A DNA stretch of 19,601 nucleotides. It comes from a virus (Duplodnaviria; Heunggongvirae; Uroviricota; Caudoviricetes). Where the stretch lies: IMG/VR virus record IMGVR_UViG_2529293139_000005; one strand, given 5' to 3'. Positions 4,731 to 17,292 of this stretch are shown one piece after another. A program made the translations under genes and the position numbers. Under the pieces are notes generated by a model that was given only the letters and a program-made list of their open reading frames with translations, was not told the origin of the DNA and made no database searches. Positions within the stretch are counted from its first letter, which is position 1; each line of letters opens with the position of its first letter.

Positions 4731-4894
4731 TAGATCTTAAAGTATTTATCTTTTAGAGATGTAGATGCAAAATTTTTTGCCTTTGAAAATTTTTTGTCAT
4801 CAGAAGAGCTTATGAACTCATCTTTTTTGTAGGGAACCGCTAATGCTGCATCACGTCTGCGAGGCAGCTTACTTACTTCCTCGCACTTTTTCAT
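4730..4894 (-). CDS. Small basic protein (54 aa, MKKCEEVSKLPRRRDAALAVPYKKDEFISSSDDKKFSKAKNFASTSLKDKYFKI); third gene of the kinase cassette; absent from the supplied ORF track
   Basis: Hand translation of the minus strand; ATG 4894..4892 lies 2 nt after the kinase TGA (4899..4897) with AAGGA 8 nt upstream; TAG stop overlaps the terminator stem. Confidence 0.4.
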   Translation of the reverse strand: MKKCEEVSKLPRRRDAALAVPYKKDEFISSSDDKKFSKAKNFASTSLKDKYFKI

Positions 4895-4896
4895 GA

Positions 4897-5943
4897 TCAG
4901 TTATCCTTTAATAACCTATACAGTTTTGTAGGGGTACATCCTGAGGATATTGTTAAGTTCGTAGCACGCCTTTTCCGCCCACCATCGTATAAACGAAAAC
5001 CAGTAGTAGACGAATTTTCTGCGTCAAAAACTATAGACAGTATAACGTCCCCAGACTTTTTTTGCCATTCATATGTGCCGTTAGTTGGTTTTGTCATCTG
5101 TAGACGCCAGTCAAGAACGCCATCACTTATAGCTGAGAGATCGTTTAGTACGTCTAGTACGGATTGATATCTTTCATTTGGATCTACATGAATGCATTTG
5201 TTTACTATTGTTATCAATTTTTTATGTATGTGGGAAGGATACTCTTTTAATGGATAGGAGCCATTAATTATCGACTCTCTGAGTTGTTCAATCGTTCTAA
5301 ATGCAGATCTTTCTCTTTCAAAATTATCATATCCAACACACATTCTATATATGGTTAATCCTGCCTGATATATGTCATATGTGAAATTATAATCATTTGT
5401 TGATAAAGAAAAATATTCCGGTGGCACATGAAAATGATATCCAAACTCAGGCGCAGCTCTCGATTCCTCATTGACTAACTGAGACAATCCAAAGTCAGAT
5501 AGCATGGCCTCATTTCTGTTTGATATCATGATGTTATTAGGTTTTATATCAAAATGCATAAGACCTTTTGAGTGTATATGATAAAGCCCACTTAAAAATT
5601 GAATAGAATACCGTATTATCTCCCTGCTCGTAAGATTAATCTTTTTTATTAATTGGTTTAGCGAACCATTATGATAAAATGGCATGGCTATATAGATATT
5701 GCTCTCACATTGAGCAGCATACTGAACTTGCACAATATTTGGATGTGCATGTTTATAGAGAAGCCTTGCTTCATTAAAGTAGTCGTCGTGGTTAGTGTTT
5801 TCTTTTTTTTCTATTTCTTTAATCACCAAGTCATGAGCTAGGTGTCTGTCATGAGCCAGATATACTTTTGAAAAACAACCCTGTTCTTCTAGATCACGAA
5901 TCCATTCGAATGCTACATCAGCTCTTTTGTATGGAGTCAGCAT
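4897..5943 (-). CDS. Hanks-type (eukaryotic-like) Ser/Thr protein kinase, 348 aa, with C-terminal extension of unknown function
   Basis: Kinase motifs in order: LVIKE (beta3 Lys), HFDIKPNN (catalytic loop, non-RD), SDFGLS (DFG), PPEY (APE-like); strong GGAGG RBS; AT-rich relative to neighbours. Confidence 0.85.
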   Translation of the reverse strand: MLTPYKRADVAFEWIRDLEEQGCFSKVYLAHDRHLAHDLVIKEIEKKENTNHDDYFNEARLLYKHAHPNIVQVQYAAQCESNIYIAMPFYHNGSLNQLIKKINLTSREIIRYSIQFLSGLYHIHSKGLMHFDIKPNNIMISNRNEAMLSDFGLSQLVNEESRAAPEFGYHFHVPPEYFSLSTNDYNFTYDIYQAGLTIYRMCVGYDNFERERSAFRTIEQLRESIINGSYPLKEYPSHIHKKLITIVNKCIHVDPNERYQSVLDVLNDLSAISDGVLDWRLQMTKPTNGTYEWQKKSGDVILSIVFDAENSSTTGFRLYDGGRKRRATNLTISSGCTPTKLYRLLKDN

Positions 5944-6398
5944 CCCCTTACCTCCGCAGATAGTGCAGCCAAAACAGCTTCATTTGTTTCAGTTGTAAAA
6001 CCAGAATTATCGATTCCATTTATATTACGGTGTGACTTCAATATTTCTTTATACTCGATCTCTGTTAGGTTCAATGATGACTTCATACCAGATTTTCTAA
6101 TGGTGTAATATCTTCTTACATCACTGCTTGAAAATGCTTCTTGAATAACAGCTTCTATATAAAGGCGGTCAATGCTAAGATTATCAGAGTTTGATTCAGT
6201 AACGCGTATAGCAGCTAATTCAACATTATATAAATTAAGAATGTCGAGGATGTTATTTCGCACATACTTTAATTTTTCTGGTGTGTCTAAGGTCGAAGGT
6301 ATTTTAATAACATCAACACATTTGAGTGCAGACTCATCAGTGCAATATACAACAAAAGATGTAACTTTGGGCGCCGCCCTAACACCTAGTATTCTCAT
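5937..6398 (-). CDS. Hypothetical protein (153 aa), first gene of the kinase cassette, translationally coupled to the kinase
   Basis: ORF 5937..6398(-); its TGA (5939..5937) lies 2 nt inside the kinase ATG (5943..5941); no recognisable domain; AT-rich. Confidence 0.65.
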   Translation of the reverse strand: MRILGVRAAPKVTSFVVYCTDESALKCVDVIKIPSTLDTPEKLKYVRNNILDILNLYNVELAAIRVTESNSDNLSIDRLYIEAVIQEAFSSSDVRRYYTIRKSGMKSSLNLTEIEYKEILKSHRNINGIDNSGFTTETNEAVLAALSAEVRGC

Positions 6399-6478: not shown

Positions 6479-7171
6479 TTATCCATGTTTCCTGTATGTT
6501 TGCGGCATGCTCCCAATAACTTTCCCGAAGATAAACACCCGGTTCATCTCGTCTTTCTCGATTGGGTCCCACGGTGAGTAGCTCTTGTTATCAGAGATAA
6601 CCAGCAGTTTATCCTTCATCATTTGCAGGCGCTTAACATGGGCTGTGTCGTCATACAGAAACGCATAGATACCATCACCGTCGAAAGATTTAACAGTGAT
6701 ATCAACGAACAGAAGATCACCTGGTTCGATCGTTCCTGACATGCTGTCACCGCGTACGTTAATGATGCGGATATTTTCTGCCTTCCTGCCATCGAACATG
6801 TGACGAGCATCGTCAAACGAGTACTCAACCGAGCGTAGAACTTCTACAAACTCACGGTTGATGACTCCCGGCCCGGCACTCACTTCTATATCAAGAACGT
6901 CAATCTTGAAGTATTTGGGATGGTTGGCAGCAGGCTTCCCTGATTGTTGACCGTCATTTCTCATCGGGCCTATGCCTGATGAGAGCCACTCTGTTCGAAC
7001 ACCCAATGCATTAGCTATTTCAACAATTTTTGTTGAGCCGCGTGCGTTGCCGCTTGTCAGTCTCCAGATTGTGGGTTGAGCTACGCCAGACGCCTTTGCA
7101 AGAGCGCCTTGAGACATTCCAGATTGTTCCATCGCTAGGTTTAAGCGATCAGCAAGAGTTTCTTTTTTCAT
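6479..7171 (-). CDS. cI: CI-type prophage repressor: N-terminal XRE-family HTH plus C-terminal LexA-like S24 autopeptidase domain (about 230 aa from Met at 7171)
   Basis: HTH MSQGALAKASGVAQPTIWRL; S24-like segment with RGDSMSG (Ser) and downstream VKRL (Lys); no SD before ATG 7171 (possibly leaderless like lambda cI); the ORF-track start at 7207 would fall inside the promoter. Confidence 0.85.
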   Translation of the reverse strand: MKKETLADRLNLAMEQSGMSQGALAKASGVAQPTIWRLTSGNARGSTKIVEIANALGVRTEWLSSGIGPMRNDGQQSGKPAANHPKYFKIDVLDIEVSAGPGVINREFVEVLRSVEYSFDDARHMFDGRKAENIRIINVRGDSMSGTIEPGDLLFVDITVKSFDGDGIYAFLYDDTAHVKRLQMMKDKLLVISDNKSYSPWDPIEKDEMNRVFIFGKVIGSMPQTYRKHG

Positions 7172-7180
7172 AAGTTTTAA

Positions 7181-7250
7181 TTTATACGCTTGCGTATTGA
7201 TGGTCAAAACACGTTTTGCTATTGATTGGGTTAATACGCATTGCTATTAT
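7181..7250. promoter_or_regulatory. Divergent PRM/PR promoter and operator (OR) region between cI and cro
   Basis: Plus-strand PR candidate: -35 TTGATT 7222..7227, 17-bp spacer, -10 TATTAT 7245..7250; minus-strand PRM candidate -10 TATAAA (plus 7181..7186); near-palindrome ATACGCTTGCGTAT; TTGCTATT at 7216 and 7241. Confidence 0.5.
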
Positions 7251-9095: not shown

Positions 9096-9793
9096 AAAAC
9101 ATCGCCGCACAGATGGTTAACTTTGACCGTGAGCAGATGCGTCGGATCGCCAACAACATGCCGGAACAGTACGACGAAAAGCCGCAGGTACAGCAGGTAG
9201 CGCAGATCATCAACGGTGTGTTCAGCCAGTTACTGGCAACTTTCCCGGCGAGCCTGGCTAACCGTGACCAGAATGAACTGAACGAAATCCGCCGCCAGTG
9301 GGTGCTGGCTTTCCGGGAAAACGGGATCACCACAATGGAACAGGTTAACGCTGGAATGCGCGTAGCCCGTCGGCAGAATCGACCATTCCTGCCATCACCC
9401 GGGCAGTTTGTCGCCTGGTGCCGGGAAGAAGCATCCGTTACCGCCGGGCTGCCAAACGCCAGCGAGCTGGTTGATATGGTTTACGAGTATTGCCGGAAGC
9501 GCGGGCTGTATCCGGATGCAGAGTCTTATCCGTGGAAATCAAACGCGCACTACTGGCTGGTTACCAACCTGTATCAGAACATGCGGGCCAATGCGTTGAC
9601 TGACGCGGAATTACGGCGCAAGGCTGCCGATGAACTGTCCTGTATGACCGCACGAATTAACCGTGGTGAGGCTATACCTGAACCAGTAAAACAACTTCCT
9701 GTCATGGGCGGTAGACCTCTAAATCGTGCACAGGCTCTGGCGAAGATCGCAGAAATCAAAGCTAAGTTTGGGCTGAAAGGAGCAAGGGTATGA
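9092..9793 (+). CDS. P: Replication protein P (helicase loader), lambda-type, 233 aa
   Basis: MKNIAAQMVNFDREQMRRIANNMPEQYDEKPQVQQVAQIINGVFSQLLATF... matches lambda P from memory; ATGA overlap with O. Confidence 0.95.
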   Translation: MKNIAAQMVNFDREQMRRIANNMPEQYDEKPQVQQVAQIINGVFSQLLATFPASLANRDQNELNEIRRQWVLAFRENGITTMEQVNAGMRVARRQNRPFLPSPGQFVAWCREEASVTAGLPNASELVDMVYEYCRKRGLYPDAESYPWKSNAHYWLVTNLYQNMRANALTDAELRRKAADELSCMTARINRGEAIPEPVKQLPVMGGRPLNRAQALAKIAEIKAKFGLKGARV

Positions 9794-10092
9794 CGGGCAA
9801 AGAGGCAATTATTCATTACCTGGGGACTCATAAGAAATTCTGTGCGCAGGACGTTGCCGCGGTAACAGGCGCAACGGTAACCAGCATAAATCAGGCTGCG
9901 GCTAAAATGGCACGGGCAGGTCTTCTGGTTATCGAAGGTAAGGTCTGGCGAACGGTGTATTACCGGTTTGCTACCAGAGAAGAACGGGAAGGAAAGGTGA
10001 GCACGAATCTGATTTTTAAGGAGTGTCGCCAGAGTGCCGCGATGAAACGGGTATTGAGGGTATATAAAAGAACATCAATGGGTACACAATGA
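9790..10092 (+). CDS. ren: Ren (100 aa)
   Basis: MTGKEAIIHYLGTHKKFCAQDVAAVTGATVTSINQAAAKMARAGLLVIEGKVWRTVYYRFATREEREGK matches lambda Ren from memory; ATGA overlap with P. Confidence 0.9.
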   Translation: MTGKEAIIHYLGTHKKFCAQDVAAVTGATVTSINQAAAKMARAGLLVIEGKVWRTVYYRFATREEREGKVSTNLIFKECRQSAAMKRVLRVYKRTSMGTQ

Positions 10093-10159
10093 TGAAACAG
10101 GTGAGTTGAGTTCAAACTGTAGTACAATTCTCTCCAGTTTGAACAGGAAAGAATATTCT

Positions 10160-10492
10160 ATGAACCCTTATATTTATCTTGGTGGTGCAATACTTGCAGA
10201 GGTCATTGGTACAACCTTAATGAAGTTTTCAGAAGGTTTTACACGGTTATGGCCATCTGTTGGTACAATTATTTGTTATTGTGCATCATTCTGGTTATTA
10301 GCTCAGACGCTGGCTTATATTCCTACAGGGATTGCTTATGCTATCTGGTCAGGAGTCGGTATTGTCCTGATTAGCTTACTGTCATGGGGACTTTTCGGCC
10401 AACGGCTGGACCTGCCAGCCATTATAGGCATGATGTTGATTTGTGCCGGTGTGTTGGTTATTAATTTATTGTCACGAAGCACACCACATTAA
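10160..10492 (+). CDS. emrE: Small multidrug resistance efflux transporter EmrE (110 aa)
   Basis: MNPYIYLGGAILAEVIGTTLMKFSEGFTRLWPSVGTIICYCASFWLLAQTLAYIPTGIAYAIWSGVGIVLISLLSWG... matches E. coli EmrE from memory; AGGAAAG RBS. Confidence 0.95.
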   Translation: MNPYIYLGGAILAEVIGTTLMKFSEGFTRLWPSVGTIICYCASFWLLAQTLAYIPTGIAYAIWSGVGIVLISLLSWGLFGQRLDLPAIIGMMLICAGVLVINLLSRSTPH

Positions 10493-10523
10493 AAATAATT
10501 TGTTTCTAAACGACTAAAATATG

Positions 10524-10565
10524 GAGGCTCTTATATTTATATGAGCCTCGTTTTATGCTTTTTGT
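10524..10565 (+). terminator. Rho-independent terminator after emrE
   Basis: GAGGCTC (10524..10530), 12-nt loop, GAGCCTC (10543..10549), then GTTTTATGCTTTTT. Confidence 0.6.
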
Positions 10566-10748
10566 TAATGTCTTTATTTTTTTATGTATTCTTTTGTGCT
10601 TTCAAGATTATGGCGTAAGAAAATTGCAATACGATTATTGTTGTATATTCAAGATAATGTGACCTTAATTGTCTTTTTAAATAAAAATTAAACAAAAATT
10701 ATATCCCACCACTAAGGTTTATAAAAGCATACGTTAGCAGGTGTCACC

Positions 10749-12275
10749 ATGAAAAAAGCCATAGCATATATGCGATTTTCATCACCAGGTCAGATGTCTG
10801 GCGACTCATTAAACCGACAGAGAAGACTTATTGCTGAATGGTTAAAGGTAAATAGTGATTATTATCTTGATACCATAACATATGAAGATTTAGGATTAAG
10901 TGCATTCAAAGGAAAGCATGCACAATCAGGAGCTTTTTCGGAATTTTTAGATGCTATAGAGCATGGTTATATATTGCCAGGAACTACATTGTTAGTTGAA
11001 AGTCTGGACAGACTTTCAAGAGAAAAAGTCGGTGAAGCGATTGAACGTCTGAAATTGATTTTGAATCACGGTATTGATGTTATAACTCTTTGCGACAATA
11101 CAGTCTATAATATTGACTCTTTGAATGAGCCATATTCATTAATAAAAGCCATACTTATAGCACAAAGGGCAAATGAAGAAAGCGAGATAAAGTCAAGTCG
11201 GGTTAAATTATCATGGAAGAAAAAACGGCAGGATGCACTGGAATCAGGTACGATTATGACGGCGTCTTGTCCGAGATGGCTCTCCTTAGATGACAAAAGA
11301 ACGGCTTTTGTTCCAGACCCCGACAGGGTGAAAACTATTGAGCTAATTTTTAAACTCAGGATGGAAAGGCGCTCATTGAATGCAATAGCCAAGTATTTAA
11401 ATGATCATGCTGTAAAGAATTTCTCAGGAAAAGAAAGTGCATGGGGACCTTCTGTAATTGAAAAATTATTAGCGAATAAAGCTCTGATAGGTATATGCGT
11501 ACCTTCATATCGTGCAAGAGGTAAAGGAATAAGTGAAATCGCTGGCTATTATCCCAGAGTCATATCAGATGATTTGTTTTACGCTGTACAGGAAATTCGG
11601 TTGGCACCTTTTGGTATTAGCAATAGTAGCAAAAATCCTATGTTGATAAATCTACTTCGAACAGTTATGAAGTGCGAGGCTTGTGGTAATACCATGATTG
11701 TTCATGCGGTATCTGGAAGTTTGCATGGCTATTATGTTTGTCCGATGAGAAGACTGCATCGATGTGACAGGCCATCAATAAAGAGAGATTTGGTTGATTA
11801 TAATATCATTAATGAGTTGCTTTTTAATTGTAGTAAAATCCAACCAGTTGAAAACAAGAAAGATGCTAATGAAACTTTAGAGTTGAAAATTATTGAGCTC
11901 CAGATGAAAATTAATAATTTAATTGCTGCATTATCTGTTGCGCCTGAAGTTACCGCTATAGCAGAAAAAATCAGAGTATTAGATAAGGAATTACGAAGGG
12001 CTTCTGTATCATTAAAAACTTTGAAGAGTAAAGCGGTGAGTTCACTTGGTGATTTTCATGCTATTGACTTAACCAGTAAAAATGGGCGAGAGCTATGTCG
12101 TACACTTGCCTATAAAACATTCGAAAAAATCATAATCAATACAGATAATAAAACCTGTGATATCTATTTTATGAATGGCATTGTTTTTAAACACTATCCT
12201 TTAATGAAAACAATATCCGCCCAGCAGGCGATAAGTACTCTCAAATATATGGTTGATGGTGAGGTTTATTTTTGA
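10749..12275 (+). CDS. ybcK: Large serine recombinase (508 aa), YbcK-like
   Basis: N-terminal resolvase-type catalytic region AIAYMRFSSPGQ (Ser), large central domain, Cys cluster CEACGN...CPMRRLHRC (zinc ribbon), coiled-coil C-terminus; AT-rich gene downstream of emrE as in DLP12. Confidence 0.85.
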   Translation: MKKAIAYMRFSSPGQMSGDSLNRQRRLIAEWLKVNSDYYLDTITYEDLGLSAFKGKHAQSGAFSEFLDAIEHGYILPGTTLLVESLDRLSREKVGEAIERLKLILNHGIDVITLCDNTVYNIDSLNEPYSLIKAILIAQRANEESEIKSSRVKLSWKKKRQDALESGTIMTASCPRWLSLDDKRTAFVPDPDRVKTIELIFKLRMERRSLNAIAKYLNDHAVKNFSGKESAWGPSVIEKLLANKALIGICVPSYRARGKGISEIAGYYPRVISDDLFYAVQEIRLAPFGISNSSKNPMLINLLRTVMKCEACGNTMIVHAVSGSLHGYYVCPMRRLHRCDRPSIKRDLVDYNIINELLFNCSKIQPVENKKDANETLELKIIELQMKINNLIAALSVAPEVTAIAEKIRVLDKELRRASVSLKTLKSKAVSSLGDFHAIDLTSKNGRELCRTLAYKTFEKIIINTDNKTCDIYFMNGIVFKHYPLMKTISAQQAISTLKYMVDGEVYF

Positions 12276-12386
12276 GTAATAATCACTTTTTCAACCGTGC
12301 TATAGTAAGAAAGTTAGGTAAGTACAATAAAATTATCTATCCTGAACGAAGCGTCCTGAGCTATGGTTTTACTATAGAGACTGCCA

Positions 12387-12710
12387 ATGGATGCTGGCGT
12401 TCTCGTTCTAGCAGTTCAACAATACCCAATCACAAAACAATTCACTGATAACGAACTTTGCACACTCGCCTGGTTATGGCGAGCAGGGAATGTGATGTTA
12501 ATTACCTACCAGAACGTTACTCCTCTTCTTCAGGTTGCGGAGCATCGTGAAGCTGGTCGCTTCACTTCTATCGAGCAAGAATACCCCCAGATACTCAATA
12601 AGGCACAGGCAATCCTTGCCAGAGAAACGGCACATGTAAAATTCCGGCCGTGGCAGGATGATAAGTGGAGTCGAGTTTTGCCGCATTTACGTTCGGATCG
12701 ATTACAGTAG
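12387..12710 (+). CDS. Hypothetical protein (107 aa)
   Basis: ORF 12387..12710(+); weak RBS; no family recognised. Confidence 0.3.
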   Translation: MDAGVLVLAVQQYPITKQFTDNELCTLAWLWRAGNVMLITYQNVTPLLQVAEHREAGRFTSIEQEYPQILNKAQAILARETAHVKFRPWQDDKWSRVLPHLRSDRLQ

Positions 12711-13171
12711 ATTCCAATTAACAATGAGAAACACATAGCCACCCCGTGGTATTGAAACCATATAATGTTGGATTTGAAAACAGATCTTTTTCCATGTATT
12801 AATAACTACATCCCCGCGAGTGATTCAAAAAGGAGGGCCCAATTTTGTCCGAGTTTTTGTATTCCCCCGCATGCCGCTGCGGAGCACTACATCTGAGTGT
12901 CTGACTAGGGGATAAAATTAGACTGGATAGTGAGAAGAAAGTGGCGTGCTAGGCTGTGCCGAGTGCTACCAGTACACCTTGGGGGTGTGCAGCTTTCGCC
13001 GAGACTGTAGTGGGTATCGGTTAATGCACGAAAAACCGAGAGGTCAGACAACCAATTTGCCGTAGGATTGTTTCCGGTGCGATACCGGTGTACTAACTGA
13101 AAGCAATGCGAAAAAGCATAAACTCGGTCCTTCAGTCGCCCTACACACTATTTACTAAGAAGGGCTAAAGC

Positions 13172-13528: not shown

Positions 13529-13715
13529 AACCTTTGATTTGCGATAATCAACTCGCCATAATCATGTCATCGGAGCCTGAACAACTCCGGTGACTTCTGC
13601 GCTAAACGGGGACGTTTATGCGCACACACAATCCAAACTCTCTTCTCCCTCCACAGATGCAGAAATGCACCTGCGATATATTGTATCCAGCGTTTGACCT
13701 CTGCGGAGGTGAAGC

Positions 13716-14171
13716 GTGAATCTCCCACAAGATGGCATCAAATTACATCGCGGTAACTTCACCGCTATCGGTCGGCAGATCCAGCCTTATCTGGAGGAGG
13801 GCAAATGCTTTCGCATGGTGCTTAAACCGTGGCGTGAGAAACGCAGTCTTTCCCAGAATGCACTCAGCCACATGTGGTACAGCGAAATCAGTGAATACCT
13901 CATCAGCAGGGGTAAAACGTTCGCTACTCCAGCTTGGGTAAAAGATGCTCTCAAACACACATATCTCGGTTATGAAACCAAAGACCTGGTTGATGTCGTA
14001 ACCGGTGATATCACCACTATCCAGTCGTTACGCCATACCTCCGATCTTGATACCGGAGAGATGTATGTCTTCCTGTGTAAGGTTGAAGCCTGGGCGGTGA
14101 ATATTGGCTGCCACCTGACTATTCCGCAGAGCTGCGAGTTCCAGCAGCTCCGTGACAAGCAGGAGGCGTAA
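13716..14171 (+). CDS. ybcN: YbcN-like nin-region protein (151 aa), GTG start
   Basis: GGAGG RBS 13705..13709 before GTG 13716; [57 protein letters not shown]... matches my recollection of DLP12 YbcN. Confidence 0.75.
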
Positions 14172-15768: not shown

Positions 15769-16866
15769 TTAGAACTGGTAAACCAGACCTACAGCAACGA
15801 TGTCATCAGTGCTTACACTGAGTGCTTTAGTGAAGTCATTTTTGTCAAGCAGGTTGATTTTGTAATCAACGAAAGTAGACATATTTTTGTTGAAGTAATA
15901 GGTTGCACCTACATCAACATATTTGACTAAGTCCTGATCGCCCCATACTCCAAGATCCTTACCTTTAGATTGCAGGTAAGCAACGGACGGACGCAGACCG
16001 AAATCGAACTGATATTGTGCAACAGCTTCGAAGTTTTGGGCTTTATTAGCAACGAAGTGATCAGCAAATACAGTCATATTCTGGGTTTCAGAATAGGTAG
16101 TGGCCAGGTAAATGTTGTTAGCGTCATATTTCAGACCTGCGGCCCAAACTTCTGCATTTTTACCGGAAGCAAATACTTCAGGAAGAACTTTCCCTGCATT
16201 AACTTGAGTGTCGGTACGATCAGATTTCGCATAAGTTGCACCGATACCGAATCCTTCGTATTCATAGGTAGCAGAGAAACCGAAGCCATCACCGTTACCT
16301 TCAGTGTAGTTATCGAAATCGCTACGATCGTTTTTGCCTTGGTACTGAGCAGCAAAATTCAGACCATCAACCAGACCAAAGAAGTCGTTGTTACGATAGG
16401 TTGCAACACCTGTGGTGCGACCAGTCATGAATACATCTGTTTGGGTCCAGGTATCGCCACCGAATTCTGGCAGAACGTCGGTCCATGCACCAATATCGTA
16501 TGCTACACCGTAGTTACGGCCATAATCGATGGAGCCGTAGTCACCGAATTTCAGGCCAGCGAAGGCAAGACGGGTTTTATCTTTGGAGGAACCTTGAGAT
16601 TCAGCGCGGTTGCCTTTGAATTCATATTCCCACTGACCGAAACCAGTCAGTTGATCGTTGATTTGGGTTTCACCTTTGAAGCCAAGACGGGCATAAGTAG
16701 TATCACCATCATCTGCATCATTAGAGGAGAAGTAGTGCTTAGCATTAACTTTCCCGTACAGATCCAGCTTGTTACTGTCTTTATTATAAATTTCAGCTGC
16801 CTGAGCAGACATCGCCATCAGTACTGATGCAGCTACAGCAGAAATTGCCACTGTTAATTTTTTCAT
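15769..16866 (-). CDS. nmpC: Outer-membrane general porin NmpC/OmpC family (365 aa precursor from [23 protein letters not shown])
   Basis: Signal peptide then [24 protein letters not shown]..., C-terminal VGLVYQF typical of enterobacterial porins; the ORF-track start at 16926 is upstream of the signal-peptide Met. Confidence 0.9.
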
Positions 16867-17292
16867 CGTGAGCCCTTTTTTTGAACTATTATTAAAAAAT
16901 GATGTCACTGCGCGATAAATATTCATCTAATCAATGTGATTATTTCAAGATGTAAGTTTTGGTTTCTCATTTGATTTGTGAAGTAGATCTCTATTTTTAT
17001 CTGAACTTTTTCTATCGAATCCTATTTATGGCTCTTATTTGAACAAAAATAAACCTATTAGCTAATTTATATTAATGGCTGTTATTTATGGGGGTTCTAT
17101 AATTCGGCAGTTTAATTTAAATCAACTAAAAATAACGTCTGAAATTATTTATTGGTTATTTGTTGAGGTTTTCTTATGTATTTGTGGTGGTGTTTTGAAC
17201 ACTCGGTAGCATTCTCATAAATATCATTCAGTGGTTTACGTACGTAAAAAATTGGTTATGCTGTTAAGAGTGGTTACTTCGTCACACAGCTT

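Follow-up and report, generated by a model that had tools for sequence, protein, structure and literature searches.

The DNA analysed here is a stretch of 19,601 nucleotides from the IMG/VR virus record IMGVR_UViG_2529293139_000005, and is referred to throughout as the window. It derives from a lambdoid prophage of the DLP12/phage-82 type. We were concerned with the segment that follows the phage gene ren, which carries emrE, encoding an efflux pump, and ybcK, encoding a large serine recombinase (LSR). The closest match is Escherichia coli FDAARGOS_497, where the counterpart prophage is at tRNA-Arg and adjoins intD. In that genome emrE, ylcJ and ybcK are annotated, with 99.9-100% identity to our region. 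The emrE-ybcK pair is thus already known; it is common in DLP12-type lambdoid prophages and is not newly found. An earlier note, made from the sequence alone, described a switch to AT-rich DNA after ren. The base composition agrees: GC content falls from 0.508 across cII-O-P-ren (0.51 to 0.36, rounded) to 0.359 across 10093-12399, and is 0.492 from ylcH to Q. The two genes, emrE and ybcK, are AT-rich accessory DNA in the nin region. The features of the locus, in window coordinates, are as follows.

9790..10092, + strand: ren, 100 amino acids, PHROG 142 (Ren-like); the final conserved phage gene ahead of the variable slot.
10083..10500, + strand: emrE module, comprising a leader and the coding sequence (10160-10492); GC 0.40; from alignment to L002 6001-6419.
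10488..10502, + strand: junction core CATTAAAAATAATTT, lying across the stop codon of emrE; left limit of the ybcK module.
10523..10565, + strand: hairpin resembling an intrinsic terminator (10523-10549) and T-rich tract; from sequence and fold.
10541..10691, + strand: ylcJ, a small-protein gene, frameshifted; from alignment to BL21 ylcJ.
10566..10748, + strand: ybcK 5' untranslated region; from the literature on the K-12 leader terminator and from allele comparison.
10749..12275, + strand: ybcK, encoding a 508-residue large serine recombinase; from Pfam domains, fold and alignment.
12276..12387, + strand: 3' tail travelling with ybcK; from allele sequences and right-junction classes.
12387..12710, + strand: truncated rha-like gene with a P22AR_C domain (Pfam P22_AR_C); right edge of the emrE-ybcK block.
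13533..13720, + strand: start of the conserved ylcH-ybcN-ninE-ybcO-rusA block; from matches to other phages.

The gene order ren-emrE-ylcJ-ybcK is also that of DLP12 in E. coli K-12, whose YbcK is listed as a predicted recombinase (P77698). The window ybcK is 97.3% identical to the K-12 type at the nucleotide level. Ten of 508 residues differ from the BL21 allele, which we used as the K-12-type representative. The window differs from DLP12 in being a fuller prophage, with O, P and an intact ren, and in having a frameshifted ylcJ. Furthermore, the genes downstream of ybcK are a truncated rha-like gene and a hypothetical gene, rather than the ybcL-ybcM of DLP12.

We examined the YbcK protein for the parts expected of a large serine recombinase. 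Pfam matches are Resolvase at residues 4-161 (E=8e-19), Recombinase (PF07508) at 191-284 (E=2e-14) and Zn_ribbon_recom (PF13408) at 302-357 (E=8e-8). The AlphaFold model (pLDDT 81) contains a long alpha-E helix (128-166), the strands of the zinc ribbon and a helical hairpin at 368-430 (368-397 and 402-430) that corresponds to the LSR coiled coil; there is also a conserved C-terminal beta domain. The best fold matches are full-length serine integrases, including PhiC31, Bxb1 and the A118-type LSR-DNA complex 4kis, with Foldseek E values of 1e-11 to 1e-19 at a sequence identity of only 14-20%. In an alignment of 23 family members, down to 28% identity, the invariant residues R9, S11, Q15, R23 and D47 and, in the ESLDRLSR motif, E84-S85-L86-D87-R88, S90 and R91 are all present in YbcK. 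The same is true of the invariant zinc ligands C309, C312, C331 and C339. The catalytic domain with its serine and arginines, the recombinase domain, the four-cysteine zinc ribbon and the inserted coiled coil are thus all in place. On the strength of the Pfam matches, alignment and model, YbcK is a canonical full-length large serine recombinase, and its description as an intact enzyme of 508 residues with catalytic serine, zinc ribbon and coiled coil holds.

YbcK shares domain order, zinc ribbon, inserted coiled coil and catalytic Ser/Arg set with the Bxb1, PhiC31 and Listeria A118-type integrases. Those enzymes adjoin attP and are the sole integrase of their phage. Conversely, YbcK is encoded internally, in phages with their own tyrosine integrase, and has no evident attachment (att) site. 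Small serine invertases of the Pin family are proteins of ~190 residues that adjoin an invertible tail-fibre segment bounded by inverted repeats. These have in common with YbcK a serine-recombinase catalytic domain and a prophage location. However, YbcK has 508 residues, with the additional recombinase, zinc-ribbon and coiled-coil domains, and the window contains no segment bounded by inverted repeats. We found no functional study or published activity for YbcK in the literature, and YbcK accessions are absent from the supplements of a large recombinase survey.

The neighbouring EmrE protein (MNPYIYLGGAILAEV) has 110 residues, matches Pfam Multi_Drug_Res (PF00893) with E=3e-35, and is annotated as emrE by RefSeq in a near-identical genome. 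Glutamate at position 14 is the membrane-embedded Glu14 of the SMR family, to which EmrE belongs. On the 3' side of emrE a hairpin (GGAGGCUC...GAGCCUC, 10523-10549) precedes a U-rich tract. The hairpin has a 7-bp GC-rich stem and a fold z-score of only -2.46. A simple consensus scan for terminators missed it because of an internal bulge and the loop. Even so, hairpin and T-rich tract bear out the proposal that emrE has its own terminator. The ATG of ylcJ sits within the descending arm of this hairpin. The ylcJ frameshift is one extra T in a run of T, and RefSeq marks the gene as frameshifted in the near-identical genome too. The ybcK leader (10566-10748) is the most variable stretch among alleles, with 28 differences per 100 bp from the O157-type allele. 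Previously, the K-12 ybcK leader was assayed as a NusG-dependent, Rho-dependent terminator; the Rho-loading site was assumed by the authors, not mapped (PMC4150792).

The emrE gene has the properties of a moron. The GC content of the AT-rich segment is foreign (0.36 compared with 0.51), and emrE lies between conserved phage genes, is absent from sister phages and is followed by a terminator. As such, emrE would be an accessory gene expressed in the lysogen and ending in its own terminator. This terminator and the Rho-dependent terminator described for K-12 would shield ybcK from emrE transcription. Because of this shielding, ybcK would be expected to be made mainly upon read-through by antiterminated early phage transcription, after infection or induction, and to be off in the lysogen.

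To describe the distribution of ybcK we used 5426 complete E. coli genomes. The gene is present in 1424, and is full length in 1398 of these (98%); the intact emrE-ybcK junction is found in 1402. A mobile element might be expected to have copies at unrelated sites. In these genomes ybcK was never found away from emrE and was always within a lambdoid prophage. Hence, there is no sign of independent ybcK mobility in E. coli. Twelve deposited phage genomes, including Perceval, 4A7, Lambda_4C10, D2, 1W, 3W, Turner and four PhiR phages, encode a YbcK that is 98% identical in protein sequence. Perceval, the one of the twelve inspected, has the order ren-emrE-ybcK.

Comparison with L004, L005 and L006 reveals mosaicism among ybcK alleles, with a breakpoint near 11500. 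As far as ~11500 the window allele does not differ from the K-12 and O157 alleles, and beyond this point it is ~5% diverged. Most amino acid differences among alleles are in the coiled-coil and C-terminal region. The ratio of non-synonymous to synonymous change (dN/dS) among four alleles is 0.05-0.11, with up to 51 synonymous changes. For individual domains, the ratio (ω) is at or below ~0.26 in comparisons with at least 10 substitutions; one pair, with three changes only, gave 0.48. Judged by these substitution patterns, ybcK is under strong purifying selection and is not decaying, and every sequenced allele examined is intact.

At the left side of the emrE-ybcK block, homology with block-free lambdoid phages stops within the 3' end of ren, between 10035 and 10065. 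The individual breakpoints are 10035 (L021), 10056 (L022 and L023) and 10065 (L003 and L024). In the comparison with phage IdasGreatGrand, homology is interrupted from 10035 to 12400, the latter point being within a 609-bp rha-like gene. The 107-residue open reading frame of the window (12387-12710) corresponds to residues 100-202 of the 202-residue IdasGreatGrand rha-like protein, at 85% amino acid identity. No 5' rha piece is present on the other side of the emrE-ybcK block and so the block is a replacement, not an insertion. The right junctions are staggered, at 12284, 12341, ~12490-12590 and ~12690. All right-junction classes, in 1737 genomes, lead into phage DNA and not into chromosome. 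Thus, the comparison of ren-emrE-ybcK junctions that the earlier note called for yields a constant left edge but no shared right boundary, and not the same two ends in every copy, as for a mobile element.

Repeat searches gave a similar picture. Across the whole window, the only repeats are operators and origin iterons, with nothing at the block edges. Terminal inverted repeats, sought with 22-nt windows at four candidate boundary pairs, scored 15/22 against a shuffle maximum of 15-17. Neither repeats nor dyads at the candidate boundaries exceeded shuffled controls, and the junctions have no dyad symmetry. Hence, the short imperfect inverted repeats suggested for the two ends were not found, and the statement that no att-like site could be assigned is upheld by systematic searching. 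The ybcK 3' tail is poorly conserved, with ~72% identity to the Perceval-type allele over 50 nt (a count from printed sequences). A 9-bp inverted repeat in this tail (CTATAGTAA/TTACTATAG) was dropped as a candidate, because neither the Perceval nor the K-12 allele preserves it.

Several observations separate emrE from ybcK. In the prophage remnant beside fliE (L002), DNA matching window 10083-10500, and so containing emrE, is joined directly to ybcL-ybcM without ybcK, at 91.6% identity. About 2240 genomes match in the 80-90% identity band that holds all sampled emrE copies of the fliE-island type. In pairs of the same genomes, the synonymous divergence (dS) of emrE is 0-0.04 whereas that of ybcK is 0.10-0.175. 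Furthermore, no SMR gene was present in the 11 other genomic contexts of YbcK relatives that we examined.

The slot between ren and ybcN is itself variable. In sister phages it contains PD-lambda-1 with rha, an acyltransferase with a lipoprotein, or small open reading frames with rha. Among carriers, ybcK is followed by ybcL-ybcM, an alpha/beta hydrolase, a rha fragment or nothing. Hot spots for morons and defence genes are known in lambdoid phages; in PhiR26_1, PD-lambda-1 occupies the same slot, with the same flanking genes. The PhiR26_1-type hot spot and the window are alike in having AT-rich foreign DNA and mutually exclusive cargo. They differ in that the PhiR26_1-type cargo is a recognised defence gene, whereas the cargo of the window is an efflux pump and a recombinase. 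Parts of the sequence with which the ylcH-ybcN block begins, 104-186 bp long and 75-88% identical, are found at other places within the slot of other phages. Specifically, window 13533-13718 matches L002 (7969-8154), 13559-13695 matches L021 (3023-3160) and 13598-13701 matches L022 (3132-3235). This recurring sequence could be a point at which homologous recombination exchanges cargo modules.

Taken together, these data are consistent with two separate accessory modules, emrE and ybcK, lying side by side in a variable ren-ybcN (nin) slot. Lambdoid phages would have built up the block, and would still be rearranging it, through ordinary recombination with one another, both homologous and illegitimate; it would not be an att-bounded cassette. 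YbcK itself most likely still works as a site-specific recombinase, in trans, on a pair of sites not adjacent to its gene. As a whole, we lean modestly towards this reading, in which ordinary recombination shuffles two neighbouring accessory modules within a lambdoid hot spot and YbcK is an orphan but intact recombinase that acts on non-adjacent sites. The suggestion of a captured mobile cassette then survives in part. The DNA is AT-rich and accessory, but emrE and ybcK do not form one cassette; their distributions are separate and the right edge is staggered. The suggestion also draws some support from a form of the module bounded by direct repeats and its precise loss, described below, and the strong purifying selection on ybcK makes it plausible that the recombinase could still rearrange DNA.

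Some points weigh against this reading. No YbcK substrate was found here, and action in trans is reached by elimination. The strong purifying selection on ybcK, with no visible role for phage or host, stays unexplained. The near-absolute linkage to emrE (1398 full-length genes and 1402 junctions) could simply be read to mean that the emrE 3' end is the target of the recombinase. A simple consensus scan of the window established no promoter for either emrE or ybcK. Finally, there is a form bounded by direct repeats with one precise loss of the ybcK module, and three relatives of YbcK are flanked by duplicated ends of a neighbouring gene; both are described below.

One alternative is that ybcK is the recombinase of a ~2.1 kb integrative element inserted site-specifically at the emrE 3' end. 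In this case emrE is the target and not cargo. The element would have brought a copy of the emrE end, so keeping emrE intact, and its right end would since have eroded in most lineages, leaving it grounded. The staphylococcal Ccr recombinases are also LSRs; they place SCCmec at the orfX 3' end, and direct repeats of ~15 bp flank the element. SCCmec resembles the arrangement in Perceval-type prophages (L006 and L007), namely an LSR element at a gene 3' end with short flanking direct repeats. There, an imperfect direct repeat of 34 bp with 29/34 matches, a figure read from printed sequences with no scoring against shuffles, lies on either side of a ybcK module of ~2.07 kb. The repeat contains the identical 15-bp core CATTAAAAATAATTT that corresponds to window 10488-10502. 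Core copies are at 4788-4802 and 6861-6875 in L006, at 5740-5754 and 7813-7827 in L007, and at 5138-5152 in L030. The right-hand copy of the repeat resembles a decayed emrE 3' end. In strain Rb-50 the ybcK module is absent and emrE is joined to the alpha/beta hydrolase exactly within the core. There are two clean pairs with and without the module, both with the same left edge: the K-12 type and the fliE island, which differ by 2083 bp, and the Perceval type and Rb-50, which differ by ~2073 bp. That ybcK is essentially never without emrE, and that the left junction is the same everywhere, also fit such an element.

Nevertheless, we regard this explanation as doubtful. Precise loss at the core is seen in 2 of the 5426 genomes (Rb-50 and OY754409). 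The two loss junctions are identical and so this was probably a single event; a 15-bp repeat suffices for deletion independent of a recombinase. Both clean indels, at the fliE island and of the Rb-50 type, are explicable by ordinary recombination. The window has no second copy of the core, and the K-12 and O157 types also lack the right-hand repeat. The K-12 and Perceval right ends of the module share no homology past the tail (~80 nt). The right part of Perceval is a subset of the window-type rha remnant, joined at a GTC microhomology. Because of this, the Perceval right-hand repeat probably arrived secondarily, with the hydrolase module. Unlike the SCCmec repeats, the E. coli repeat is confined to a single arrangement out of four or more, may be secondary, and has no documented excision or integration. 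The junctions lack dyad symmetry, as noted above, and a grounded element fails to explain the continuing purifying selection.

Relatives of YbcK allow a broader version of this alternative to be considered. Proteins of 505-522 residues with 41-61% identity occur across the Enterobacterales, and we examined their flanks up to 10 kb. Some are in the nin-like regions of other lambdoid prophages, as in Pantoea dispersa, where a tyrosine integrase is also present, and in two metagenomic or read-assembled (Logan) contigs with the order LSR-DinI-DUF1367-NinG-Q. Others are at extreme prophage ends, after tail-fibre genes in Yersinia, Erwinia and Pantoea and beside ssrA in Atlantibacter. The remainder are in other elements: near umuDC and dinI, in a mobilisable element and in an island rich in insertion sequences. 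Both nin-like and prophage-end positions are classic sites for accessory genes. For four close copies (L010, L017, L025 and L026/27), homology between contexts comprises the gene and 40-68 bp upstream, ending at the stop codon; L010 and L017 share a 68-bp leader.

The flanks of three relatives contain duplications, a pattern that also favours an element inserted at the emrE 3' end. In L017, a recombinase with 61% identity to YbcK is flanked by a 229-bp duplication of the DUF1367 5' end (82.5% nucleotide and 97% amino acid identity). The left copy (9623-9851) is cut after 60 codons and the right copy (12609-12831) is intact, with KGG and DinI genes between them. This looks like integration with restoration of the target gene. 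A 27-bp repeat flanks the relative in L018, and a 324-bp pilV-like repeat, with 68% identity, does so in L020. From such cases, YbcK-family genes could be near-minimal self-inserting elements that occupy the ends of genes in prophage accessory regions and restore the target with a carried copy of its end. With the emrE 3' end as the target in E. coli, this would explain why ybcK is never without emrE. We consider this family-wide proposal unlikely. We found no flank that ybcK has in common with the relatives, for which alignment to E. coli is limited to the initial 30 coding bases, and comparison of the leader start with the gene end of relatives, as an inverted pair marking an attachment site, gave no convincing match.

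Other features of these contexts are recorded here in their own right. In Citrobacter koseri (L020, 8145-13573), the recombinase, which is 49% identical to YbcK, lies between an intact pilV-like gene with a faint Shufflon_N match and decayed pilV-like fragments. Here a pilus adhesin gene may have been replaced in association with the recombinase. In three genera, prophage ends have a conserved pair of small open reading frames (80 residues and 107-115 residues) beside the recombinase (L010 9092-9684, L014 12207-12772 and L032 9325-9890). The larger is UmuD-like only by an N-terminal MGFPSPA.DY motif, recognised by eye, and DinI or UmuDC genes adjoin the recombinase in four other contexts. We considered the pair as candidate directionality factors and set it aside; the 107-residue protein looks UmuD-like by eye. 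The 107-residue frame of the window is unrelated to this protein, being the rha fragment.

YbcK could instead be a second, alternative integrase that permits lysogeny elsewhere when the site of the tyrosine integrase is missing or occupied. The gene is intact, under selection and present in viable phages, and its place in the early rightward operon, shielded by a terminator in the lysogen, would suit this role. Relatives with 52-59% identity also occupy prophage ends, at ssrA in Atlantibacter, at lepA in Erwinia and after tail fibre genes in Yersinia and Pantoea. However, these are classic positions for accessory genes too, and inspection for other integrases there covered flanks of 10 kb. In E. 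coli, carrier prophages are found at argU, at icd and adjoining ybhC, and in each ybcK is internal, with the tyrosine integrase at the prophage end. The prophages at icd and ybhC (L004 and L029) have an annotated excisionase as well, and Perceval has a tyrosine Int and Xis. Because a tyrosine integrase is thus found at the end of every carrier examined, YbcK is not the integrase of its phage. For the alternative role, the right junctions that all lead into phage DNA are equally unfavourable, and the DNA beside ybcK is poorly conserved, with no attP candidate emerging. Hence, we think a second integrase quite unlikely.

It is highly improbable that ybcK is a functionless relic of a former element that merely hitch-hikes. 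The gene has no known substrate or phenotype and is silenced in K-12, and excision of another, unrelated island was unaltered in a panel of site-specific-recombinase mutants with ybcK among them (PMC5426353), but the low dN/dS with many synonymous changes, the retention of all catalytic residues and the full-length state of nearly all copies already disfavour decay. We give just as little weight to a function outside DNA movement, for example in anti-phage defence or in regulation by DNA binding: the slot carries a defence gene (PD-lambda-1) in sister phages and the relatives are solitary genes with homology confined to the gene and its short leader, yet PADLOC gave no match for YbcK, EmrE or the two downstream open reading frames, and the catalytic residues invariant across the family imply that recombination chemistry is maintained.

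Two other parts of the window also carry accessory genes. An intact nmpC/ompD-like porin gene (15769-16926, - strand; Pfam Porin_1 E=5e-156) lies between the Q antiterminator and lysis genes, and is a further classic accessory gene of this phage type. An AT-rich block of two genes (4897-6398, - strand; GC 0.32-0.37) adjoins the cI repressor gene (6479-7207). One encodes a Ser/Thr protein kinase of 348 residues (Pfam Pkinase E=1e-46; PADLOC models PD-T4-6 and mad6) and the other a 153-residue protein without a family match. The FDAARGOS_497 prophage, 99.9% identical across the ren-ybcK stretch, has no annotated genes at the position of this block and the space is too small to hold it. The block probably encodes a prophage-borne exclusion or defence kinase.

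The emrE-ybcK 'cassette' is best seen as an annotated mosaic accessory block, and not as a newly found mobile element. Its recombinase gene is nonetheless carried by one in four complete E. coli genomes, and by viable lambdoid phages already equipped with an integrase. It is among the few site-specific recombinase genes of K-12 without a known substrate, and so poses a modest but real question rather than being junk. The repeat-bounded variant in phage Perceval (strain LF82) would be a concrete and cheap test bed for YbcK activity.

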